IMG/VR virus record: IMGVR_UViG_3300048878_000408
Location: 1 to 50,196 of that record
From: a virus
Taxonomy: Duplodnaviria > Caudoviricetes
Reading direction: 5' to 3' (one strand)
DNA length: 50,196 nucleotides
The notes beneath the pieces were generated by a model. That model ran no database searches and was not told where the DNA came from. It saw only the letters and a program-made list of their open reading frames with translations. A program made the translations under genes and the position numbers. The stretch's first letter is position 1, and every line of letters starts with the position of its first letter. This document shows positions 3,355-38,146 of the stretch, one piece after another.

Positions 3355-3654
3355 ATGACAGACGCAGAAGATGATATTTATGAGAGAATTATACTAGAAC
3401 AAGAGAATAAAGAGATACAGTGGAGGCTTGTCGTTTCTAAATTTAGAGACATTGAGTACCTCCACCTTAGAAAATACTATTTAGACTTTGAAGGAATATA
3501 TATGCCAACTAAAGAAGGCGCATGTATCCCTTTTGAGCTTAATAGCTTATCTAACTTATTTGAGGCATTAGTAGAAATACTAAGTTTAGCAGAAAGTAAG
3601 GGGTCTATAGAAACTCATTTTAAAGGACTTATAAAGGACTTATATGAACAATAA
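3355..3654 (+). CDS. PC4/p15-like ssDNA-binding protein
   Basis: VSKFRDIEYLHLRKYYLDFEG.YMPTKEG PC4 signature; upstream of ligase as in T5. Confidence 0.85.
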   Translation: MTDAEDDIYERIILEQENKEIQWRLVVSKFRDIEYLHLRKYYLDFEGIYMPTKEGACIPFELNSLSNLFEALVEILSLAESKGSIETHFKGLIKDLYEQ

Positions 3655-4579
3655 AGATTTATTGGATAAGGCATCAAAGGCTTACTATGAAGGTAAGCCT
3701 TTGTTGTCTGACGAAGAGTTTGACAGATTAGCAGAGCGAGAAGGGTATGAGCCTGTTGGCTATAACCCTGACGCTAAACGAAAACATCTGTTTCCACTAT
3801 ACTCACTTCAGAAAGTTTTTGTAGGTGAGGATAAGAACCCACTTCTAGGATTAGATATAGTTGAAACCCTTAAATTAGATGGAGCAGCTATTGCTATTCA
3901 GTATAAAGAAGGGAAGTTACATAAAGTAACTACACGTGGGGACGGTACTGCAGGTGTTGATGTTACCGATAAGTTTATATATGATAACATTATACCTTAT
4001 AGTATTAATAACTACGGTACTATACAAATAACCGGAGAGATAGTAGCTCCTAAAGAGATACCTAATGCTAGGAATTATGCGGCAGGTGCTTTAAATCTAA
4101 AAGATATTAAAGAGTTTTTAAGTAGAGACCTTACCTTTATCTCGTACAACGTTCAACCTTGCTTTAGCGAATCTTATACTAATGATATGTATTTATTAGA
4201 GGCTATAGGATTTAATACTGTAACTAAAGGAGATTGGAGTCAATTCCCCGAAGATGGTAGAGTATTCAGAGTAAACTCTAATACAGTATTTGAGGATATG
4301 GGTAATACATCACACCACCCTAGAGGGGCATACGCTCTAAAAACTAGAGAGAAGGGAGTAGTAACCACCCTACTTGATGTAATTTGGCAAACAGGAAAAT
4401 CTGGAAAGGTTACCCCTGTTGCTATATTAGACGAGATAATTATTGATGACGCTAAAATTTCTAGAGCTACGTTGAATAACATGGCATACATTGAAAGTTT
4501 AGACCTAGAAATAGGTTGTCAGGTTGAAGTAATTCGAGCTGGTAAGATCATCCCTTGTGTTATAGGAAGAGTTGGTTAA
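3644..4579 (+). CDS. ligA: NAD-dependent DNA ligase subunit A (adenylation + OB domains)
   Basis: YY.G.P.LSDEEFD, KLDG active site, TRGDG, RNYAAG, G.VTPVA, RATLNN, RAG.IIP. Confidence 0.95.
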   Translation: MNNKDLLDKASKAYYEGKPLLSDEEFDRLAEREGYEPVGYNPDAKRKHLFPLYSLQKVFVGEDKNPLLGLDIVETLKLDGAAIAIQYKEGKLHKVTTRGDGTAGVDVTDKFIYDNIIPYSINNYGTIQITGEIVAPKEIPNARNYAAGALNLKDIKEFLSRDLTFISYNVQPCFSESYTNDMYLLEAIGFNTVTKGDWSQFPEDGRVFRVNSNTVFEDMGNTSHHPRGAYALKTREKGVVTTLLDVIWQTGKSGKVTPVAILDEIIIDDAKISRATLNNMAYIESLDLEIGCQVEVIRAGKIIPCVIGRVG

Positions 4580-4599
4580 TACATCAAGAAAAACAACTC

Positions 4600-4628
4600 T
4601 TGACTTTTAGTTGAAAGTTAAGTATAAT
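4600..4628 (+). promoter_or_regulatory. Sigma70 promoter between the two ligase genes
   Basis: TTGACT 4600-4605, 17-nt spacer, TATAAT 4623-4628. Confidence 0.85.
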
Positions 4629-4660
4629 ATATTATATAGAAAATTGAGAAAACGAATAAG

Positions 4661-5419
4661 ATGATAAGAATAGAACCACCTACCCAATGTCCCAGTTGTG
4701 GGTCGAAGTTAGAATTAGTAAAAGACCAATTATTTTGTCGCAATCCCGATTGCGAAGCTACATCGAGTAAGAAGTTAGAACATTTTGCTAAAACACTAAA
4801 AATAAAAGGATTAGGTCCTAAGACTATCGAAAAGTTACCTCTTACCTCTATACCAGACATCTATTCGATGTCTAAAAAAGAAATAGTTGATGAAATAGGA
4901 GATAAGTTAGGAGACAAGTTGTTTAATCAGATTGAGTTAAGTAAATCAGTTGATTTGACAGTGTTACTCCCTGCTTTCTCAATATCATTAATTGGTTCCT
5001 CCGCTTCTAAAAAACTAACTAAACAGATATCTAGCATACGCGATATAACCCACGAGAGATGTTTAGAAGCAGGCTTAGGACCTAAATCTTGTACAAACTT
5101 ACTTAATTGGTATCATAATGAATTTTGTGATAACCTTGAGTATTTACCATTCTCATTTGAGTCGGAGGTACAAGAAGTAACTACTAAAAGTATCGGTAAA
5201 TCCGTCTGTATTACAGGCAAATTAAATGATTTCAAAAATAGAAACCTCGCAAAGAACTATTTAGAATCATTTGGCTTTACTGTTACAACTTCTATCACTA
5301 AAAAGACTGATTATCTTGTAGATGAAGAAGGAAGAAAATCAAGTAAGAGTGCCAAAGCAGATAGCTTAGGTATTCCAATTTTAACAATCAAAGATATTTT
5401 AAAGGATAACAAATTATGA
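4661..5419 (+). CDS. ligB: NAD-dependent DNA ligase subunit B (Zn finger, HhH, BRCT)
   Basis: PTQCPSCGS...CRNPDC, IKGLGPK, BRCT-like VCITGKL...SITKKTDYLV. Confidence 0.93.
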   Translation: MIRIEPPTQCPSCGSKLELVKDQLFCRNPDCEATSSKKLEHFAKTLKIKGLGPKTIEKLPLTSIPDIYSMSKKEIVDEIGDKLGDKLFNQIELSKSVDLTVLLPAFSISLIGSSASKKLTKQISSIRDITHERCLEAGLGPKSCTNLLNWYHNEFCDNLEYLPFSFESEVQEVTTKSIGKSVCITGKLNDFKNRNLAKNYLESFGFTVTTSITKKTDYLVDEEGRKSSKSAKADSLGIPILTIKDILKDNKL

Positions 5420-23484: not shown

Positions 23485-24036
23485 TTATGATATTGATAAG
23501 TAAGCATCCGTGCCTACATTAACTGTTATTCCTGTTGCAACATCTACAGTGCCAGAAGAACTAGCATTGAAGTTATCAGCAACGGTGTAGTTTGCCGTAA
23601 TAATAGGTTGAGTAAGTAAAAATGGGGGATTACCTCCATCTACTTGTACTCCACCTACATATAGAGTAGTACAATTAACTGTACCGGCTACATCTAATTT
23701 ATAGTCTGTATTCGGTGTGTCTGTACCAATTCCAACGGTCGACGTATTATAAATAAAAGTACCACTATTAGACCAAACATTTGTAAGAGTTGTATTCTCC
23801 CACTGGCTGTTTGAGCTATTATACTGTAGTACTTGATTATTTGATAAACCAGTAACGTTAACATCGTCTAAGGAATTTACATTTCGAGTCGTTAATTCTA
23901 AAATATTATTAGAAGTATCTCGAACGAATAGTTTCTTGTCCGCTAAGTTAATAGCGATTTCACCTGCCTCTAGGTTAGCTGTACTAGGTACATTGCTAGA
24001 GGTGGTGGTTCTTTTCGGTTTAAATTTAATTGCCAT
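23485..24036 (-). CDS. Short tail fibre connector protein
   Basis: N-terminal KPKR...LEAGEIAINLADKKLF domain, LDDV...NQVLQYN....W repeat, C-terminal beta-helix-like ITANYTV...TVNV. Confidence 0.75.
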   Translation of the reverse strand: MAIKFKPKRTTTSSNVPSTANLEAGEIAINLADKKLFVRDTSNNILELTTRNVNSLDDVNVTGLSNNQVLQYNSSNSQWENTTLTNVWSNSGTFIYNTSTVGIGTDTPNTDYKLDVAGTVNCTTLYVGGVQVDGGNPPFLLTQPIITANYTVADNFNASSSGTVDVATGITVNVGTDAYLSIS

Positions 24037-24095
24037 TTGGCCCCCTTAATCTAATTTGCTATATAGCTGGGTTTATGAAGTGACCTATATAAGGT

Positions 24096-24683
24096 CTAGT
24101 CCGAAGTTATTAAGTCCGAAACTTTTAAGGTTGATCCTGTACATACTTTAACAACAACATCTACAGCAATAGCTGTATCTATTTGAGACTCTGCATTATA
24201 CGTGCAGGGGATATCGTAGCTCTCACTAACTAAAGATGCGGACTCATGGAACCATCCTGGTCCAACTTTCTCACCAGAGGCAAGAGTTATCTGTCCAGAT
24301 GCATTGAATATCCCGTCTACTTCTAAAGTATAAGCACCTGAATGAGTGCTTTTACCTATTGAAGTTTTGCTGGATGTTCCTGCATCTAGATAGTAAGTTC
24401 TACCTACGCTAGTGTTCCATTCGCCTAAATCTCTATTGAAGTTTTCCCATCTACTATTAGCACTGTTATAGTGCATAAGTTGATCGTTACTAATACCAGA
24501 GAAGTATACATCCTCTAAAGAGGTTATAGTCCTGGTTGTTAGTTCTAGTATGTTATTGGACGTATCTCTTACAAATAATTTCTTATCTGCTAGATTGATT
24601 GCGATCTCGCCCGCTTCTAAATTAGAAGTAGTAGGAACCGTTCCCGCACTAGTGGTACGTTTTGGTTTTATGATATGATACAT
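24096..24683 (-). CDS. Short tail fibre connector protein, paralogue of 23485..24036
   Basis: Same architecture; 31 aa identical to neighbour. Confidence 0.75.
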   Translation of the reverse strand: MYHIIKPKRTTSAGTVPTTSNLEAGEIAINLADKKLFVRDTSNNILELTTRTITSLEDVYFSGISNDQLMHYNSANSRWENFNRDLGEWNTSVGRTYYLDAGTSSKTSIGKSTHSGAYTLEVDGIFNASGQITLASGEKVGPGWFHESASLVSESYDIPCTYNAESQIDTAIAVDVVVKVCTGSTLKVSDLITSD

Positions 24684-28599: not shown

Positions 28600-29508
28600 T
28601 TATGCCCCTTGAAGATCTTTTATCTGTATTGCTTGTTTTTCCACCATATCTTTAAGTTCTTTAATAGCCTCAATATATAATGAATGCAACGCATCGTACT
28701 CTACAGTTTTAAAAACTTCATCAGTTCCTGTATGTAAAGGTAGACTTCTTTCAACTACTGCCTGAGGTAATACTTTCTCCACATCCTGAGCAATTACTCC
28801 TGCAGATCTTTTACCGCTATCCTTACGTGTAAACTCCACTCCATTAAGCTGTGAAACTTTATCTAAGGCCCCATCAACTGTGGAAATTGCAGTCTTTAGG
28901 TTCATATCAGACACTGTAGCTGAATAAGCTACTACGCTGCCATCAGCGTGCAGATCTCCATCACTCTCCATTCTGAATCTCTCTGTACCATTAAGGAAAA
29001 ATCCAAAATCTGCTGTATTAAATATAATATAGTCATTAGAGTCTCTACCTATATGAGTCATAGCGTCCCTAAGATCTGGCTGTACAGAGAATGTAGTTCC
29101 CGATAAATTAATTCCCGAGCCTGCTGAATAGGTAGTATTAGTATTAGTAGGGGTAACCCAAGAAAAAGTACCATCCCCATCAGACCTTAGAAACTGGGTA
29201 TTACTACCGTTGCCAGAGACTGCTAGTTTGTCAGCAGTAACGTTATCAGAAGCAATTTTAATAGTAGAGATAGCTCCCGAGGCTATATCCCCGCCTACTA
29301 TTGTACCAGAAATCACTTCTTCGAAAGAAGTGCCATTGTGAACTTTTAGTAAGTTGTTGGCAGAGTCATACCAGAGTTGCCCTGTAGTAGGGGATGAAGG
29401 TGCCGAAGCGTTACTATTAGTACTCTTAATAGCCGCTAAAGCATTATTTATATCCGAGCGGGTCGCTGGGAATGATTGATTAGAAATGTTGTAGTCATGT
29501 GTTGCCAT
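28600..29508 (-). CDS. Short tail fibre with C-terminal S74-like chaperone
   Basis: MATHDY.I.NQ.FP..R.DIN.AL N-terminus; SD..LK...GVIAQDVEKVLP chaperone similar to that of the 1210-aa fibre. Confidence 0.85.
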   Translation of the reverse strand: MATHDYNISNQSFPATRSDINNALAAIKSTNSNASAPSSPTTGQLWYDSANNLLKVHNGTSFEEVISGTIVGGDIASGAISTIKIASDNVTADKLAVSGNGSNTQFLRSDGDGTFSWVTPTNTNTTYSAGSGINLSGTTFSVQPDLRDAMTHIGRDSNDYIIFNTADFGFFLNGTERFRMESDGDLHADGSVVAYSATVSDMNLKTAISTVDGALDKVSQLNGVEFTRKDSGKRSAGVIAQDVEKVLPQAVVERSLPLHTGTDEVFKTVEYDALHSLYIEAIKELKDMVEKQAIQIKDLQGA

Positions 29509-29511
29509 AGT

Positions 29512-32500
29512 TTAATATCCTGTACTTATCCAATTGAAAGTTTTCTGGGTAGCAATACTGCTACTTGTATAAAAAGTTACTGTAAATCCGGTAGTAGTTG
29601 CACTAGTTATAGTATAATACTCCCCAGAATTAAAGTTCTGAACCGTAATACCCACCGTAGGTGTTGCCTTAAAAGGGGTACTATATGTTATTACTTCGGT
29701 ACCATTATTAGTACCAGAGCTGCTTATAATGTGTGTATCTCTTTTAATAGTATCCGGCATATCTATTGTAGCAGATAAAGCATCTAATCTAACGTTATGT
29801 GTAGTATTACTACTGGTTAGTTTTGATCTAAATCGTATACCTCTAGCTGTATAGTCTCCTACGAAGAAAGGTGCCCACGTAGACCAAGTAGGAGAAGCTC
29901 CAGAAGGGTCATCCGAAGTAATACTAACTTCCATAGAAGCATTGGTATCTGATATATCAGAACCATCAAACAAACCTTTTCCTGGCTCATCAAATAATCC
30001 AGAGGTAGCGTCAAATAAGCTAGTAGTAGAGAAAGAACTACTAGCGTATGATGCAGTAAGTCTATTGGTATATACTTCACCAAGATCATAGTCCTGAGCT
30101 GTAAAGTAATAGTACCCATAGGATAGTACATCTCCCTCTACCTTATAGTTTGACGAATTAGTTTGCCCAAATATATCTGCCTCTAGTATTAGAGTATTGC
30201 TATCTTGAACTGAGGAAATAGATGATAAGGCTCCTGTATCTAAATTTCGTATTAATCTATTATCATGAGTAGATGTGAAGGAGGCTCCTGTATCTCTTAG
30301 TACTGCATTTGGTACTTCTATACGGTACCCTTCCCCATCTTGATTATCAAAAATTGGAGAGGATAGTACTAACTCTGTACTGCTAGTTCTTGAAGATATT
30401 GTAGCTGTAGTATTATCAGTAGTATTACGTACTACCTTACCTACTACTTCAGTACTAAAAGAGGCTGTAGGATCGTATAATCTATCATATCCAGGCTCTA
30501 TTTGATAAGTATGGGTATCTTTATTATCAAAGATACCAGAAGACAAAGTTAGCTCATTACTATTCACAAAAGCTGAAACTGTAGCAGTAGTACTATCATT
30601 AGTATTTCGTACCGTTCTTCCTACTAGCGCAGAAGTAAAGCTTGCGCCGGTGTCTCTTAGATTATTTGGTCCAGCCTCTATCTCCCATATATCCCCACTC
30701 TGATCGTTAAAAATACCAGAAGATAAAGTAAGTTCATTACTACTGATAAAGCCAGATATTGTAGTAGTTGTATTATCTGTATTATTACGAATAGTTCTGC
30801 CTACATCACTAGAAGAGAACGAGGCTCCAGTATCTCTAACTCGCCCTGTTTCATTATGTACATTATACGTATGGCCATTTTTATTATCAAAAATACCCGA
30901 AGATAAAGTGAGCTCATTAGCGCTTACATAAGCACTAACTGTTGCAGTAGTGTTAGTATTCGTGTTTCTTACTAGATTTCCTACATGAGAAGATACGAAA
31001 CCTCCCCCTGTATTATATAGTTTATTAGGTCCTACTTCTACCTCATAATTATGTGCATTTTTATTGTCAAAAATACCAGAAGATAGGATTAATTCAGTAG
31101 AGCTAACATAAGTTGATACCGTAGCAGTAGTATTATCATTAGTATTACGTACAGTTCTACCTACTAGCGCAGAAGTAAAGCCTGCGCCGATATCCCTTAA
31201 GTACCTTGGTCCTGCTTCTAGTTCCCACGTATCTCCATGTGAATCATTAAAAATACCAGAAGATAAAGTAACTTCTGTGTTACTTAACCTACTAGCAATT
31301 GTAGTAGTTGTATTATCCGTAGTATTCCTAACAGTTCTTCCTATATCTGCAGTTGAGAAGCTTGCCGATAAGTCTCTTAGTCTGTTAAGTTCATTATTTA
31401 CGTTATAACTATCCCCTTCTTTATTGTCAAATATCCCAGAAGATAAAGTAAGCTCATTAGCACTTACATAAGCACTAACTGTAGTAGTTGTACTACGAGT
31501 AGTATTATATACTTTATTACCTACCATTCCTGATGAGAACCCACCACCAGTATTATAAAGCTTAGACGGGCCTGCCTCTACCTGGTATACGTGAGTATTT
31601 TTATTGTCAAAAATACCAGAAGATAGTACTAGTTCCGTAGTACTAGTAAAAGATGAAACTGTAGCGGTTGTGCCGGCGGATACATTTCTAACTGTCCTAC
31701 CTACTAGCGCAGAAGTAAAGCTGGCTCCGGTATCTCTTAGTACATTAGGACCTGCTTCTAATTCCCACGTATCTCCGTGGTCATTTTGAAATAAAGCGGA
31801 AGATAAAGTTACCAAACTAGAACTGTTAATAGTAGAAATAGTTGCAGTGCCTCCATCCGTATTATTTCGTATTGTTCTTCCTATATCTGCGGCTACAAAT
31901 GTTGCAGTAGTATCTCTTAATTGATTAGCTTTAGTTTCTAATCTGTAAGCATCTCCACTATACCCATCAAATATATCCGAACTTAAGATTAATCTAGTAC
32001 TACTAGTTACTGTATTTACTGTAGCCGTAGTATTATCTGTAGTATTGCGAATAATGTTATTTAACCAACTAGAGTCAAAAGAAGCGTTATCGTCTTCCAA
32101 CATGTTAGTAGTATGTGCGATGTCGTCAAAGTTACCTAATCTGCTGTCGAAGTTGCCAGAGGCGGTATCAAATATGTTGTTATTGTTTAATTCTGTGCTA
32201 CCTGAATTTAAAATAGCATTGTGTACTCCAGTAGCTCTAGCATCATCATGAGTACCTGTACCGAACCCATCATGAGTACCTGTAGCTATATATTCATTAT
32301 AAGTACCGGTATCTCTAGCGTCATCGTGCGTTCCAGTAGCTAAGTTATCATCATGAGTACCCGATACTAAGATATCATTGCTAGTGCCTGTAGATCTGGC
32401 GTCGTCGTGCGTTCCAGAAGATACTACATCATCCTCATGAGTTCCTGTATTGTAATAGGCATCATGAGTTCCAGAGGCTAGATTAATAGTATCTATCTGT

Positions 32501-32970
32501 ATACTTTGATTATTTGTATCATAAAATATATTAGTATTAGCAGGATTATTTATCCCTTCATCTGCAGTATTACTGCCATAGTTTGGATTTTGTACGCTAG
32601 TGTATACTGCATTCAACGATAATATGTCCGCCACATTGGAGGTGACTTTAGTAGCAGTACCTGATTCATTACCAGAAGAATCTAACGCTTTGATTAAATA
32701 GGTTCCTGACATTAAAGGCACTGAATAGCTCGTGGCATTACCCGGTATTGTTTTAGTAATATCTGAAGCAGCCGCCCAACTTGCACTAACCGCACTAGTA
32801 TACCTTACCCAGTAAGTTCCTCCATTTATAACATCTAAATCAGGTACTCCTGTCCAACTTAGATTAGCCTGGTCACCTTGAGATATCATGAAAAAATCTG
32901 TAACGTTGTTAGGGGGCGTTAATTTACCATATATTTCATCGGACCAAGTAGCAAAAGGTGAGTATAGCAT
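29512..32970 (-). CDS. Tail tip/straight-fibre protein (C-terminal half of a gpJ-like protein) with 11+11 repeat insertion
   Basis: N-terminal FN3 (LSW...Y.VRY...GTYLIKA.D.SGNES), 11 short GTHD repeats, 11 ~60-aa repeats, C-terminal W..W.PF..G.YT.R and F...P.VGIT domains; AAGGAG RBS. Confidence 0.85.
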   Translation of the reverse strand: MLYSPFATWSDEIYGKLTPPNNVTDFFMISQGDQANLSWTGVPDLDVINGGTYWVRYTSAVSASWAAASDITKTIPGNATSYSVPLMSGTYLIKALDSSGNESGTATKVTSNVADILSLNAVYTSVQNPNYGSNTADEGINNPANTNIFYDTNNQSIQIDTINLASGTHDAYYNTGTHEDDVVSSGTHDDARSTGTSNDILVSGTHDDNLATGTHDDARDTGTYNEYIATGTHDGFGTGTHDDARATGVHNAILNSGSTELNNNNIFDTASGNFDSRLGNFDDIAHTTNMLEDDNASFDSSWLNNIIRNTTDNTTATVNTVTSSTRLILSSDIFDGYSGDAYRLETKANQLRDTTATFVAADIGRTIRNNTDGGTATISTINSSSLVTLSSALFQNDHGDTWELEAGPNVLRDTGASFTSALVGRTVRNVSAGTTATVSSFTSTTELVLSSGIFDNKNTHVYQVEAGPSKLYNTGGGFSSGMVGNKVYNTTRSTTTTVSAYVSANELTLSSGIFDNKEGDSYNVNNELNRLRDLSASFSTADIGRTVRNTTDNTTTTIASRLSNTEVTLSSGIFNDSHGDTWELEAGPRYLRDIGAGFTSALVGRTVRNTNDNTTATVSTYVSSTELILSSGIFDNKNAHNYEVEVGPNKLYNTGGGFVSSHVGNLVRNTNTNTTATVSAYVSANELTLSSGIFDNKNGHTYNVHNETGRVRDTGASFSSSDVGRTIRNNTDNTTTTISGFISSNELTLSSGIFNDQSGDIWEIEAGPNNLRDTGASFTSALVGRTVRNTNDSTTATVSAFVNSNELTLSSGIFDNKDTHTYQIEPGYDRLYDPTASFSTEVVGKVVRNTTDNTTATISSRTSSTELVLSSPIFDNQDGEGYRIEVPNAVLRDTGASFTSTHDNRLIRNLDTGALSSISSVQDSNTLILEADIFGQTNSSNYKVEGDVLSYGYYYFTAQDYDLGEVYTNRLTASYASSSFSTTSLFDATSGLFDEPGKGLFDGSDISDTNASMEVSITSDDPSGASPTWSTWAPFFVGDYTARGIRFRSKLTSSNTTHNVRLDALSATIDMPDTIKRDTHIISSSGTNNGTEVITYSTPFKATPTVGITVQNFNSGEYYTITSATTTGFTVTFYTSSSIATQKTFNWISTGY
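30127..32103 (-). repeat. Eleven ~180-nt (60-aa) tandem repeats
   Basis: Consensus LRDTGASF....VGRTVRNT.DNTTAT.S...S..EL.LSSGIFD...G..Y.(V/I)E; period-3 subclasses. Confidence 0.92.
32191..32478 (-). repeat. Eleven 8-10-aa repeats x(S/T)GTH(D/E/N)
   Basis: ASGTHD, NTGTHE, SSGTHD, STGTSN, VSGTHD, ATGTHD, DTGTYN, ATGTHD, GTGTHD, ATGVHN, NSGSTE. Confidence 0.88.
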
Positions 32971-35372
32971 TAGAAAATTCTCCTTGTCTTAACTCGAAAC
33001 TCTAGCGTACCTGCTGGAGCATCATCAATAATAACACTTTGTGCTGAAGTTTCCCCTATAGAAACCCAGTTTGTAATAGCGGGAGCCTTTCTTCTCCATT
33101 CAACATAGTACGATGCAATATATGGGTAAGTAGTTGCGGTACCCGCAGTTTTTGGGGCATCCCAAGAAAATTCTGCTCTATTTTTAACATTACCCATTGA
33201 GTCAATATACAATTCCTCTGTAATAGTTAAGTTAGATGGAGACGGTATTGGGTCACTAGGGTTAGGTAAACTACTAGTGGACTTAGCAGAGAAGGCTATG
33301 TCCTCTTCTATCAAGTCATACTTCGCTCCATGATACTTCAATGCTGAAATTTCAACCATATTAGCACCAGACTCCCTAGTTATTAATACTCTAAAATCCT
33401 GAGCCTCTACGGACCCCATCTCCTCTAGTATCCACATATAGTTAGCTGTAGGAGTATTGGCGAATGCAGAAGTCACTGTAACTTCTGTTACTTCTTCTGT
33501 TACTGATACATAGTTAACATCTTTTGTTTCTACCCACACATAAGGTTTCCACTCATTATCTACGTGAGCATTTAAACAAGTCTCTTGAGTAGTCTCCGAT
33601 TGTTTAACTCCAGACTGTACACATGCCTCTTCTGTATTAATTAGAGATAACTTATAAGTTTTAAGTGCAGTAACAGAAGTAGGGGCATCTAATTTAATAG
33701 TAGTAGTTGTACTGCCTGCCGCAATTCTGCCTCCATAACGAATACCCGCTTTATGAGAGTCGGCTACTTTAATAATATCTCCAGGTCTAACTGCTGCACC
33801 TTCCATACCTGTTGTAAAGGTTACAGTTTCAGTTTCGTACCTTTCAGTATATAAAATCCACTTACCTACTCTTCTAGCCTGGCCTTGCGAAGTACAACCT
33901 ACAGCAATTACATCTGTAGAAAAAATCTGATTATTAGCATTAACTATGCCTGGAGCATCCTCTACATACTCGACATTTTGCCTATAGAAATCTTCTGGGT
34001 TATTCCAAGTAACGTGCGCTACGTTATGTCTCTGTTTCCTAGAAGTTCCTTCATACGTGAAAGAGCCTTCAATTACATTAGCGTCTGAAAAATTCATCAC
34101 TGGATCTTTAGGTGCATCCTGTACAGAACTAATCTGTCCTTGTTGCCAATATATCATACCTCTAAACGCTGAGGATATGTCATTTAGTACTTTAAAAGCT
34201 TCTTCTCTGCCTTGTAAGTACAGATTGCAAGCAAATCGTGCCTCTTTATTATCCCATCCGTCGTCTACTCCAATAAAGTTTCCCGAGTTATCTACTGAAT
34301 CACAATACTTTCCAATCTCATATAGAGACCACTTATCCATCTGACTAGCAGATAGCCACTTACCTAATCCGTACCTTTCATCAGTACATAAGTCGTATAA
34401 AATCCAAGCAGGATTACAAGTCCATGCAATATCAAACGTACCATCCCACGAGCCAGTGTACAAAGCATCTCCAGGCGAGGTACCTAACCAGGTTCCTCCC
34501 GCTTGTACACACCTATCTTTTCGTCTATAACCAGATAAAGAACAATGTCCAGGATCGTAAGGAGTGTAGTTACTAGGAACTTTTATCTTTACTCCTTTTA
34601 TTTCATATGCTCGTCTAGGAATAGAAGTAAACTGTCTAGCGTCTACCTGAGTAGCTATTAAAGCGCTATTAGGATACCTTAATTTATTATCTATAATTAT
34701 AGTATAAGAATTAAAATATATTTCATTCTGTATTTTTGTAGAAGTAGCGTCCTCACTAGTCCTTTCTACTTTAATAGCTATAGTAGTAAACCCAGCGGAC
34801 TTCCAAGTCGATGGTATATCTAGTCTATATGCTCTTTCATACTTTGCTGATGTCTTCCCTGTAAAAGAGTCTGCTTTTGCCTCGTACCAACCCCCGTCGT
34901 TGTCTTTTTCTAGCCAGATTTTGAAGGACACGGTGGAACCGTGTAAGTCCCCCTCATCATTGTCCCCATCTAAAAGTGCTGGAGTATGTATTATAACTCT
35001 TACTGCATCTACTGTAGTAGATGAAAATGTTTTGATTATGGCTCCGGGGGCTTCTTTAGTTACTGGAATGCCAACACCTACCCCAGATTCTGTCCCTGAA
35101 AACCCTGGTATGTAAGTCTGAGAATTTGTACCCTCTCTAGTAGAATAAGATACGTCGTCGAAGTTACTCCCACCCGCAGAGTCTTGTAGTGGAGTTTCAT
35201 TTAGGTAAATAGACTTTTCAGCATTTAATAACCCTACTATCTCTCCTTCAGATAATAAATCAATAACTCTAGCTTTAGATTCTGAAAATAATGTATCATC
35301 ATCTTCTTTAGGGGCACCACCGCTACCACCTTTTCCTCCACCTGCACCTCTAATCCAATCTTTATTACTCAT
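32970..35372 (-). CDS. Lambda gpJ-like tail tip (baseplate hub) protein, N-terminal part
   Basis: Start at ATGA overlap (MSNKDWIRGAGGGKGG); DL.SEGEI.GL, YPNSAL, W..NPAW.LYD.....RYGLG, GCTS.GQARR.GKW.L. Confidence 0.93.
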   Translation of the reverse strand: MSNKDWIRGAGGGKGGSGGAPKEDDDTLFSESKARVIDLLSEGEIVGLLNAEKSIYLNETPLQDSAGGSNFDDVSYSTREGTNSQTYIPGFSGTESGVGVGIPVTKEAPGAIIKTFSSTTVDAVRVIIHTPALLDGDNDEGDLHGSTVSFKIWLEKDNDGGWYEAKADSFTGKTSAKYERAYRLDIPSTWKSAGFTTIAIKVERTSEDATSTKIQNEIYFNSYTIIIDNKLRYPNSALIATQVDARQFTSIPRRAYEIKGVKIKVPSNYTPYDPGHCSLSGYRRKDRCVQAGGTWLGTSPGDALYTGSWDGTFDIAWTCNPAWILYDLCTDERYGLGKWLSASQMDKWSLYEIGKYCDSVDNSGNFIGVDDGWDNKEARFACNLYLQGREEAFKVLNDISSAFRGMIYWQQGQISSVQDAPKDPVMNFSDANVIEGSFTYEGTSRKQRHNVAHVTWNNPEDFYRQNVEYVEDAPGIVNANNQIFSTDVIAVGCTSQGQARRVGKWILYTERYETETVTFTTGMEGAAVRPGDIIKVADSHKAGIRYGGRIAAGSTTTTIKLDAPTSVTALKTYKLSLINTEEACVQSGVKQSETTQETCLNAHVDNEWKPYVWVETKDVNYVSVTEEVTEVTVTSAFANTPTANYMWILEEMGSVEAQDFRVLITRESGANMVEISALKYHGAKYDLIEEDIAFSAKSTSSLPNPSDPIPSPSNLTITEELYIDSMGNVKNRAEFSWDAPKTAGTATTYPYIASYYVEWRRKAPAITNWVSIGETSAQSVIIDDAPAGTLEFRVKTRRIF

Positions 35373-36022
35373 GCTACATCCTCTGGTATATAATCCTCTG
35401 GCATAACTCCAGAACTGATAACGGCTCCTCCTACTAACAATTGCCCGTAACATACAGGAATAGCGAAACCTTGTCTAGCTGTATTAGCTGCCCCATCAAA
35501 TCCATAGTTTGTAGGCCTATCAGCTGTAGATGGAAGCTCCGGTGTTGGTGCTAACATAGAAGCCACCCCTCCTAGTATTAAGGCTCCTGCAAACTTTAAT
35601 GCCATAGTACCCATTGAGCCCGCTAAAGTTACTCCGTGAGTTATAGTACCCATAGCTCCTAATTCTCCGGCTGCTAAAGAACCTATCGATTGAAGCCCGT
35701 ACGCATAAAAGCCACCGATAATAAGTGCTCCTAAAAGAATCATGCCTAGACCTTTACTTTTTGCTCCAAGAACTACAGGAATTATCTTAATTTCTTGACG
35801 GCCAGAAGGGTCTCCTAATTCAGGATAGTCATTAATATAAGACTTCCCTACCATTATTTTGTACCCTACACCTCGTTCTTCTGAAGAAGCAACAAACTGT
35901 CTAAATCCTATATTATTAACGTCAAGTGCTTTAAAAGCCTCCCCAGGGGAGTCTACGTCTAAGGACCACTCCTTTCCGAACTTTTCAGCTAACTCTCCAT
36001 AAAGTATTATTTTCTTTAACAT
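35369..36022 (-). CDS. Lambda gpI-like tail assembly protein
   Basis: MLKKIILYGEL...FG, I.IIPVV.GA, Y.F.G..NT..QG..IPV.YG...VG..VIS. Confidence 0.9.
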   Translation of the reverse strand: MLKKIILYGELAEKFGKEWSLDVDSPGEAFKALDVNNIGFRQFVASSEERGVGYKIMVGKSYINDYPELGDPSGRQEIKIIPVVLGAKSKGLGMILLGALIIGGFYAYGLQSIGSLAAGELGAMGTITHGVTLAGSMGTMALKFAGALILGGVASMLAPTPELPSTADRPTNYGFDGAANTARQGFAIPVCYGQLLVGGAVISSGVMPEDYIPEDVA

Positions 36023-36729
36023 AATGATTTGTGCCTTAAATGGTGCGTGGTATGTTTTCTCCAATATCCGCCATAGATTTCTCTATTGGATAGTCTACCG
36101 TATACGTGATGTAAAATTCTATCGTTCCCAATAAAAACTGCGGCATGGTTTGGTACAGGTGAAACTAATTTTATTAAAAATACATCGTATTTTTTAATGT
36201 CATTTTCATCAAGTATCTTAACAAAACCCTGCTCTTCATAGTTTTCTAAATATCGATTCTCTCCTTTATCCCACCAGCCGTCTTGACCACTATAACATTC
36301 AAAATCGATATTTAGCTCTTTTTTGTAATAATCTCTAAGTAATGTACAACAATCTAAAACTCCATAACTGAATTGTCTACCCACTATTGGGGCTTCGTAC
36401 CCTGTGGGCTCCCAGCTATATAGTCTGTTACCTGGCCAACTTAAAATGTGCCAAGGCTTATTAGAAGTTTCGCAAGCAACTTTATCCGCTTCAGAAGGCG
36501 TACAGCCTTCATTAGGATGAGAATGACAAATACCTATAATAACTCCTGTATCTTCTGCATCCGCATAACTTACTGGATCTATTATAAAATACTCTTCTGC
36601 GCGACCTGCTATATTTTTTGCTGGGAAGTACCTTTCTTTCTTGCCTACCCCTATTATAAACCCGCAGGCTTCTTTAGGGTATTCCGCTTCTACATGCTTT
36701 CTAAAATCATCTAGAGTTTTATCATTCAT
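36016..36729 (-). CDS. Lambda gpK-like tail protein (JAB + NlpC/P60)
   Basis: YP.EACG, HSHP.....PS.AD; GR.F..GV.DC, NHAAV.IG...ILHH...RLS. Confidence 0.93.
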   Translation of the reverse strand: MNDKTLDDFRKHVEAEYPKEACGFIIGVGKKERYFPAKNIAGRAEEYFIIDPVSYADAEDTGVIIGICHSHPNEGCTPSEADKVACETSNKPWHILSWPGNRLYSWEPTGYEAPIVGRQFSYGVLDCCTLLRDYYKKELNIDFECYSGQDGWWDKGENRYLENYEEQGFVKILDENDIKKYDVFLIKLVSPVPNHAAVFIGNDRILHHVYGRLSNREIYGGYWRKHTTHHLRHKSLC

Positions 36730-37607
36730 CGTACCGAGCCCATATTAATACCAGCTCCTGGGAACCCCCCAAAAGGGCTTTCTAAAGGCTCAGGGAACCT
36801 CAGTTCACAAGAGGTAAAAGTTTTTGAACATACATCATCAGAAGATGATCCCACTACATTATTACTAATATCCCAATAACTACTACCAGAATACCCACAC
36901 TCCACTCCTCTATATACCCAAGGGCACGAGTTAGCTACTACCGTTCTAGAAGGTAGCTTAACTCCGTGTATGTCATGTGCGGCAGTTAATTCAAATTGAA
37001 TATGAGTATTAGTTTCTATAGCTTTTCTATCTACATACCAGATTTCATCTGGAAAATGTGCAGTATCATCTGCTATAGCGGAAGCGTACCATATACCCGG
37101 CCCTGCTGCTGCTTCACAAGTAGTCTGGTTGTATACTGTCCAAGTACCTACAGAACCGTTTTTATTAGTATCTAAACAGTCTGATTTACTCAGACTTGGA
37201 TCCGATCCTGATTCCCCGGTACACAGCCCAGCGGTTGGATATCCCCCAGTATAACAATAAGAATCTAAATACTTTGCGAAAGTTTTCTTTCTTACAACCT
37301 TTGCACCAACTAAATCATCGTAACTATTAATAACGCTAGATAAAATAGAAGTAATATTAGCTACAGTAATTACAGGTCTAGGTATCGCCCCCTTGCCAGA
37401 AAACTCAAACCCTTCGGCTTCAATAGGCATAGCTGAATACCTATTACCCTGCCATACTATTTCTTGTAGATTTTCATTCTGACCGGCATGCCACCTAAGG
37501 ATAGGTTCTGAGTCTGGGGCAGTACCCACCGATAGGTCAAGTTCAAATAACTCAATAACTGCTCCTGGCTCAAAGCCGTGAATATCTGCTGTAATTTTAT
37601 CACTCAT
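36726..37607 (-). CDS. Lambda gpL-like minor tail protein (Fe-S cluster Cys motif)
   Basis: IELFELD, WQG..Y...PIEAEGFE, DL.GAKV.R..T.AKYLD, C.W.YRG.ECGY...D.C.K....C..RF, FGGFP. Confidence 0.93.
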   Translation of the reverse strand: MSDKITADIHGFEPGAVIELFELDLSVGTAPDSEPILRWHAGQNENLQEIVWQGNRYSAMPIEAEGFEFSGKGAIPRPVITVANITSILSSVINSYDDLVGAKVVRKKTFAKYLDSYCYTGGYPTAGLCTGESGSDPSLSKSDCLDTNKNGSVGTWTVYNQTTCEAAAGPGIWYASAIADDTAHFPDEIWYVDRKAIETNTHIQFELTAAHDIHGVKLPSRTVVANSCPWVYRGVECGYSGSSYWDISNNVVGSSSDDVCSKTFTSCELRFPEPLESPFGGFPGAGINMGSVR

Positions 37608-38146
37608 GGTTCAAATACCTTTGTAAATGTTGCTGTTATAGTTCTAATACCTGACAAAGTTTCTTGAGAACTCCACTTTCCACAAGTATATTTCTTATAT
37701 GGATTAATAGTATAAGTTTCTCCACTTGACATAATATCTACTGATAATGATAATTGCGTTGCGCTATCTACTGCCGTTACAGTAGAAGTCGCTCCGCCTG
37801 AATCTGTAACAGTAGTGTTTAAATATCTAGCAGTAAAATATTGACTAGTATCTATCAATTTCTTAGTAGAAATTGCGGTAGTAGTACTGGCTATCTCATA
37901 CCCAGTAGGGTACCAGTCAAATGCAGTTATGCCTGCTTGCTCTTCAAGAAAGCCTACAATCTTATTAGCTTCTGCCGAGGTTCTATTTTTCCAAGTTAAG
38001 TTCCATGATTCAGGTAAATTATTTATACCGGCAGCTACTCGCTGCTCGTACCCATCACCGTAAGTAGCTTTCAAAATTCTAGGCTGTTGTTCTGATTTGA
38101 GTCCTCTATCTGGATTTATATTTACTTCTGTATTAAAATTTGCCAT
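37604..38146 (-). CDS. Lambda gpM-like distal tail protein with inserted domain
   Basis: YGDGYEQR...GIN, FL....G..AF.W.P, I.ATF..VFEP. Confidence 0.9.
   Translation of the reverse strand: MANFNTEVNINPDRGLKSEQQPRILKATYGDGYEQRVAAGINNLPESWNLTWKNRTSAEANKIVGFLEEQAGITAFDWYPTGYEIASTTTAISTKKLIDTSQYFTARYLNTTVTDSGGATSTVTAVDSATQLSLSVDIMSSGETYTINPYKKYTCGKWSSQETLSGIRTITATFTKVFEP

Follow-up and report, generated by a model that had tools for sequence, protein, structure and literature searches.

Two matched repeat arrays in a phage tail-tip protein suggest a nested arm of eleven self-inserted beta domains

Introduction

The DNA analysed here, a 50,196-nt virus record that we refer to as a whole as the window, encodes T5-like replication genes and a siphophage tail operon with genes for the major tail protein, tape measure, gpM, gpL, gpK, gpI and gpJ. 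The product of one tail-tip gene, designated J2, contains a run of eleven short motifs (A1-A11), a spacer, and a run of eleven longer repeats (B1-B11), which raises the question of how the two arrays are related in the folded protein. The first-pass annotation proposed that each A motif is the missing first strand of a B domain and that pairing is nested, from A11-B1 to A1-B11. Our analysis indicates that the insert is very probably a nested arm formed within one chain, in which a beta domain of ~69 aa would have been inserted into itself eleven times.

The J2 gene and its neighbours

J2 lies between the gene for the hub and a fibre gene:

28600..29508, minus strand: tail fibre of 302 aa with an S74 chaperone (PF13884), the next gene after J2
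29512..32970, minus strand: J2, a 1152-aa tail-tip ORF and, from homology to gpJ C-termini, the split-off C-terminal part of gpJ
32970..35453, minus strand: N-terminal part of gpJ, the hub, 827 aa (phrog_31 central tail fibre J, E 9e-232; PF13550, PF24801)

Both ends of J2 are homologous to the C-terminal ~330 aa of fused gpJ proteins (E 1.7e-61 to 5.9e-23) and also match short tail proteins of Pelagibacter and Roseobacter phages, and its matches in BFVD carry the name tip attachment protein J; among PHROGs, 0 families matched the ORF. Its location after the hub (or fused to it), FN3 start and gpJ C-terminal homology identify J2 as a distal gpJ module. T5 pb4 has the same position after the hub and the same FN3 start, and T5 likewise splits hub and distal fibre in the sections of PMC10038345 on which we draw. 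J2 differs from pb4 in carrying the nested arm and in being split, as judged by eye, before the last FN3 strand, which the J2 N-terminus would supply in trans.

The hub, which ends in RVKTRRIF, has its stop codon overlapping the J2 start, with an AGGAG just upstream (window 32968-32990, minus strand). This split point is fixed in 27 of 28 loci (L001-L028), the remaining one, L004, being without that DNA. A programmed -1 frameshift at the split is disfavoured because the T run is not intact in four loci and every locus retains the AGGAG before J2. Wherever downstream DNA is present, a fibre gene with the same N-terminus directly follows J2 at every arm length, and among the loci scanned we found no link between arm length and the presence of this gene. 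Sequencing runs with the J2 gene were labelled hydrothermal vent metagenome in 24/24 rows.

Several other features of these loci were recorded. The J2 of L020 (5182-6969) has only 595 aa and stops inside the second acidic loop, through either a frameshift or an assembly error. The gpI position holds two tandem genes of ~200 aa in L007, L012, L022, L023 and L024, and one in the window. Short Cys-containing inserts occur in gpL (36726-37607) and gpJ (32970-35453, minus strand), and a similar one interrupts homologue P0137. Two tandem phrog_29752 paralogues (window 23485-24683, minus strand) are followed by a ~380-nt stretch without a long ORF and then by an 891-aa gene. The NAD-dependent DNA ligase is spread over two genes (window 3644-5419, plus strand), as it is in T5-like phages.

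Architecture of J2

Within J2, we distinguish the following parts:

32620..32928, minus strand: FN3 domain, residues ~15-117, recognised via 5jip_B (Z 13.4, rmsd 1.7, 86 aligned)
32491..32619, minus strand: first half of the host beta domain, residues ~118-160 (from arm-less homologues and the model)
32191..32478, minus strand: A1-A11, eleven motifs of 8-10 aa (from sequence), each a putative first strand plus outgoing loop leg
32104..32190, minus strand: spacer L261-N289, 29 aa, the putative arm tip, with three hydrophobic-Asp units at 32122-32172
30121..32100, minus strand: B1-B11, eleven beta domains of 60 aa without a first strand (from sequence and profile)
29755..30120, minus strand: remainder of the host beta domain (second half, residues ~951-1072), which includes another acidic-motif loop at 29962-30018
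29515..29754, minus strand: C-terminal domain, weakly H-type lectin / gp53-like (PF09458, E 0.0013, below cut-off)

The FN3 domain also aligned to lambda gpJ (8iyk_J; Z 10.2, rmsd 4.9, 94 aligned), and the C-terminal domain of an arm-less homologue matched PF21882 (E 0.0012, below cut-off). The arm begins after the last strand of the first half of the host domain, and arm-less homologues bridge the two halves with 7 residues. Phage 812 chain 9euf_0 gave an alignment to the host domain that spans the insert (model 117-1072; 170 aligned, Z 11.2, rmsd 4.4).

The motifs, spacer and repeats were all found as described in the first-pass annotation, including every period-3 subclass named for A and B. 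The A glycines are residues 167, 176, 186, 195, 204, 213, 222, 231, 239, 248 and 257, and the B array starts at residue 291 with an exact 60-aa period (B1, 31921-32100; B11, 30121-30300). The consensus given for A, (S/T)GTH(D/N), is exact in six of the eleven motifs; the other five deviate at one position at least (TGTHE, TGTSN, TGTYN, TGVHN, SGSTE). The His of GTHD (window 32191-32478) is conserved in the A units of the J2 family and absent from intact first strands and from the other nested families.

An assembly artefact or chance origin of the arrays was ruled out. At the DNA level, the B repeats share 39-77% identity and no exact run longer than 30 nt, and loci L001 and L003, as well as 10 contigs, contain the identical 1152-aa protein in full. 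A 1613-nt contig from a separate run, not flagged as a possible source, matched 31152-32764 with 0 differences; it covers all A motifs, the spacer and B1-B5, and none of the contigs in that check spans the whole array.

The B units lack a first strand

In the same genome, gpM carries the repeat domain in intact form, as the first-pass annotation had noted:

37703..37900, minus strand: single repeat domain inserted in gpM, intact with its first strand, covering positions 1-69 of a 70-position profile (E 3.9e-27; this copy itself belongs to the profile)

On the intact-domain profile of 72 positions, the B units aligned to 14-69 (98.4%), and a 70-position profile matched 10 of the 11, every match beginning at position 9-15. 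A search with a B-unit profile yielded 898 representatives at E <=0.001, and S-G-T-[A/T]-[T/D] occurred at -11 to -7 from the B start (237 domain hits, 146 new proteins among the matches listed), where the intact first strand has G in 73% and T in 54% (n=237). On a first-strand matrix built from 225 intact strands (training median 10.3), the slot before each of the eleven B units scored -11 to -27. The A units scored -8.4 to 5.0, seven of them at 0.2 to 5.0, about the top 5% of windows, and four were negative. The proposal that A supplies the missing strand is therefore supported at the sequence level, in that B is without the first ~13 positions of the domain and A resembles those positions, a likeness that appears real but weak.

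Because the first-strand slot is empty in 11/11 B units, and the period is 60 aa as against mostly 68-78 aa in head-to-tail arrays of this domain, the B array does not appear to be an ordinary tandem repeat with a whole domain per unit; 60 + 9 gives 69.

The domain itself matched no named family. Pfam returned scattered weak matches on 14 intact domains, with no SBHM/HABAS family, and a PucR match to the ORF, below cut-off, was dismissed as a repeat artefact. Sequence searches of the PDB found nothing beyond two haemagglutinin rows, which at E 0.13-0.15 are chance matches. The best ESM Atlas value for the insert was 0.75, and the gpM copy reached 0.83 with a cluster that is 19% End_beta_barrel, which we treat as no more than a lead; fold searches with both whole-protein models returned lists filled by FN3. 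In other proteins, the domain turns up in varied settings. The gpM copy of L013, L015 and L017 (gpM of 260 aa) has an 80-aa Gly-rich domain nested in another loop, the copy in P0178 hosts an E1_FCCH domain, and gpL of the arm-less relatives L150 and L185-L188 holds an intact inserted copy. P0187, a tail sheath, has six ordinary tandem copies, and P0160, a baseplate wedge, ends in the domain.

Matched counts in homologues

Apart from 27 distant gpJ proteins, which were kept out of the count from the start, there were 144 candidates. We removed 34 of these that lacked anchors, most of them truncated and some affected by start-codon parsing, and the remaining 110 complete proteins yielded 75 distinct inserts, counting that of the window. 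Equality of the A and B counts, a check proposed in the first-pass annotation, held in 72 of the 75 distinct inserts, which are close kin in 8 count classes rather than 75 independent trials. Automatic counting gave equality in 70, and hand correction of P0021 and P0070 brought this to 72. Eight inserts were 0/0, so that 64 of the 67 with an arm were balanced. Layer numbers were 0, 2, 4, 5, 7, 8, 9 and 11, and the A length followed 8.9 x nB + 9.4 (r 0.97).

The three unbalanced homologues, P0009 (8/7), P0033 (8/5) and P0028 (5/7), were each represented by one sequence on one contig, and may be assembly chimeras or real intermediates; P0009 and P0033 have a common A array and appear to be a single gene that has collapsed within B. 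Three further locus scans (126 new loci, 46 of them incomplete or unparsed, 47 distinct segments), kept out of the 75-insert counts, revealed no new layer number, and the arm was not found in 14 matching GenBank phage records (best coverage 34%).

Reverse-order pairing

We then compared the order of units in the two arrays by pairing each A tail with a B-B junction in six balanced architectures of at least five layers, leaving out the three unbalanced homologues, the unclassifiable P0072 and all 2- and 4-layer forms. With unit classes drawn by hand after seeing the data, one dictionary fitted 42/42 junctions when paired in nested order and 26/42 in colinear order. For internal units the figures were 24/24 and 17/24, and the best of 20,000 shuffles reached 20/24. 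Because the classes had been drawn in this way, we repeated the test class-free (five proteins, 23 pairs) and obtained a rank correlation of 0.63 nested and 0.24 colinear, with a maximum of 0.36 in 1,000 shuffles; without the window protein, the values were 0.55 and 0.11. This register agrees with the proposed anatomy: variation in the Ai tail accompanies variation in the junction immediately preceding B(n+1-i), the two being opposite legs of a single loop.

These comparisons bear directly on colinear completion, A1-B1 to A11-B11, by way of a ring or between chains. The period-3 classes of the window do permit it, and shifted by one it is the best alternative register, fitting 29/36; the ambiguity between nested and colinear pairing noted in the first-pass annotation holds for the window alone and is broken by the class order of the homologues. 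Colinear completion is extremely unlikely given the seven internal mismatches and a correlation inside the shuffle range, and the lineage origin of the units, described below, is crossed. The 34 residues from A11 to B1 would moreover span ~12-13 nm, as against up to ~30 nm of A chain.

The missing strand, matched counts, reversed order and register are evident at the level of the sequence and support nesting, and equal counts with reversed class order favour the pairing A11-B1 to A1-B11 of the first-pass annotation. The inserted domains would act as hosts themselves, their segments closing in reverse order. In the mechanism that we propose, a beta domain of ~69 aa was placed inside itself eleven times, each time in the loop that follows the first strand, with domain i composed of Ai and B(12-i). 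The Ai tail and the junction before B(12-i) would be the two legs of the loop holding the next domain, and the innermost loop would hold the spacer. The chain would run outward as a line of first strands and return as stacked domain bodies, giving a closed arm that buds from the host beta domain in distal gpJ. We infer this fold, with one arm per chain. The arm would be no longer than ~30 nm (30-32 nm), an upper bound equivalent to at most ~3 nm per layer.

Predicted structures

The AlphaFold2 model of the 1152-aa protein (36 rows) had a mean pLDDT of 72.7 and a pTM of 0.39. A1-A5 and A10-A11 were modelled as strands, and the most confident parts, A1-A3, A10-A11, B1-B2 and B9-B11, match what nesting from both ends would give; residues 211-237 (A6-A9) and 261-284 (the spacer) were below pLDDT 50. 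A five-layer homologue gave pLDDT 78.9 and pTM 0.57, with long strands only for A1, A2 and A5. The insert was beta in both models and not proline-rich, and neither displayed a pb4-like beta-helix spike.

The modelled strand pattern is uniform across the B units, whether or not an A strand is resolved. This uniformity, despite A6-A9 being unresolved, is what one would expect if B folded alone as a tandem string, A being an acidic or metal-binding repeat or a return tether that tracks string length. The three unbalanced homologues and the weak A profile score point the same way, and a tether would also give equal counts. We nevertheless regard independent folding of B as very unlikely, since a tether leaves the class-by-class reversed pairing unexplained and B would be without a strand that has G at 73% in intact domains.

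Pairing could instead occur between chains, with the A strands of one chain of a gpJ-type trimer completing a neighbour's B units and three arms braiding into a needle. In one variant, the A histidines, conserved in the J2 family and absent from intact first strands, would possibly meet on the axis as in the T4 gp37 needle; the histidines of that needle belong to an HxH motif, whereas A has a single His. Single-chain models make several A units confident strands, and the nested-looking arrays of other families have no His in A. Counts and reversed order fit pairing within and between chains equally, and T5 pb4, at the same gene position, is a trimer in the sections of PMC10038345 used here; a trimeric state of J2 in the virion is presumed by analogy with T5 pb3/pb4. 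On balance, braiding between chains is improbable, and we retain the nested arm formed within each chain.

The tip loop and its candidate ligand

The spacer consists of three hydrophobic-Asp units, 7 residues apart, with three Asp and two Gly invariant in 67/67 inserts. By a strict regex, the same acidic motif is present at the same site, without an arm, in 15 of the 27 distant gpJ homologues, and a second acidic loop is present in 25 of the 27 and in J2 (residues 985-1003). The eight arm-less close homologues are without the first acidic loop altogether. Given that the motif occupies this site in arm-less gpJ relatives too, the arm is probably an extension of a docking loop: the domain would have been inserted around a pre-existing loop, and then into itself, pushing the loop outward.

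The arm-scaffold of phage 812 offers a model for the three-unit spacer, by analogy only. Its 28- and 40-residue loops, with equivalent hydrophobic residues, fit a protein trimer in the excerpts of PMC13433997 that bear on this point, and since phage 812 docks trimers on triangular loops, a three-unit loop would suit a trimer. The acidic loop is a candidate docking site for a trimeric tail fibre, with the 302-aa S74 fibre as candidate ligand. The most likely job of the arm, to which we give roughly even chances, is that of a spacer arm moving the three-unit acidic loop off the tail axis, with the layer number tuning its length. In P0159 an unrelated segment of ~50 aa replaces the loop, which fits an arm with exchangeable cargo.

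Growth of the arm

The internal orders of units are R (5 layers), EFR (7), RILR and REFR (8), EFREF (9) and RILREFR (the window). In the window, B6-B8 are closest to IL-type genes (0.92, 0.98, 0.83) and B3 and B5 to EF-type genes (0.85, 0.83), with B4 a tie; A4-A5 track the B6-B8 lineage and A7-A8 the B3/B5 lineage, which is the nested order. The window gene looks like the inner cassette of one lineage inside the outer shell of another. Length change would most likely come from recombination at like units of both arrays, either because two phages exchange an inner cassette in a single swap or by two unequal crossovers via an unbalanced gene. The earlier supposition that growth needs matched duplications at two separate places is relaxed accordingly: two independent duplications are not required.

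By eye, unrelated proteins also have runs of first strands followed by equally many strand-less bodies. One family has a 4+4 layout in P0162, P0291, L029 and L030 and a 2+2 layout in P0210, P0292 and P0293, other members of the P0162 family having one intact domain or none. P0260 is likewise 4+4, and P0160 (3+3) and P0178 (2+2) are both split at a later point. We lean towards a class of self-insertion repeats, telescoping arms of a depth that varies among phage relatives (0-11 here), with exchangeable tip cargo and independent origins on one unnamed domain (the P0162 family, P0260 and P0160/P0178).

Discussion

The closest precedent lies outside phages. In Si3 of cyanobacterial RNA polymerase, as far as the relevant portions of two reports describe it, one small beta domain is self-inserted, several copies being composed of distant chain segments, the result being an extended arm (150 A) that grows out of a loop (PMC10895346, PMC11515920). 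An ECOD-wide survey of 2.7 million domains includes Si3 as a six-level case, and the J2 nest would be about twice as deep as that example, as presented in the part of the survey cited (PMC13114784). The J2 domain is different by sequence, and Si3 branches and mixes continuous with split domains, whereas the J2 nest would be unbranched, at one site, 11 deep, and 0-11 among close relatives.

A stalk of two repeat arrays that runs out and back is also known from the streptococcal antigen I/II protein SpaP, whose A-P stalk, according to the passages drawn from PMC7732690, lifts an intervening domain over 50 nm off the surface. There, the A region consists of helical heptads that lock into PxxP and no globular domain is split, whereas each J2 layer would be a beta domain; the pair of helical alanine-rich and proline-rich arrays that defines antigen I/II is not found in the J2 insert.

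In pili, donor-strand complementation provides a missing strand from elsewhere, between subunits, and T4 gp18 and RrgA contain domains inside domains that are few and unlike; none of these is a self-similar repeat of variable depth. The first-pass annotation knew of no phage protein with this architecture. For phages this stands, in that an unbranched, 11-deep nest of variable depth in a phage tail did not appear in the literature searched, whose scope took in few subscription papers. The principle of recursive self-insertion is already known, and what appears to be new is its linear, 11-deep and length-variable form.

Repeat proteins are assumed to grow head-to-tail and domain finders assume contiguity, and the layout of J2 would defeat both assumptions. 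Folding must close from the tip outward, with contacts between residues up to ~780 apart. The arrangement also suggests how stiff arms might be designed that keep both chain termini at the base. For the phages themselves, the length of the arm would change only if two distant parts of the gene change together, and the natural series of 0-11 layers makes it possible to test directly in what order folding proceeds, how well unbalanced intermediates are tolerated, and how arm length affects attachment to the host.
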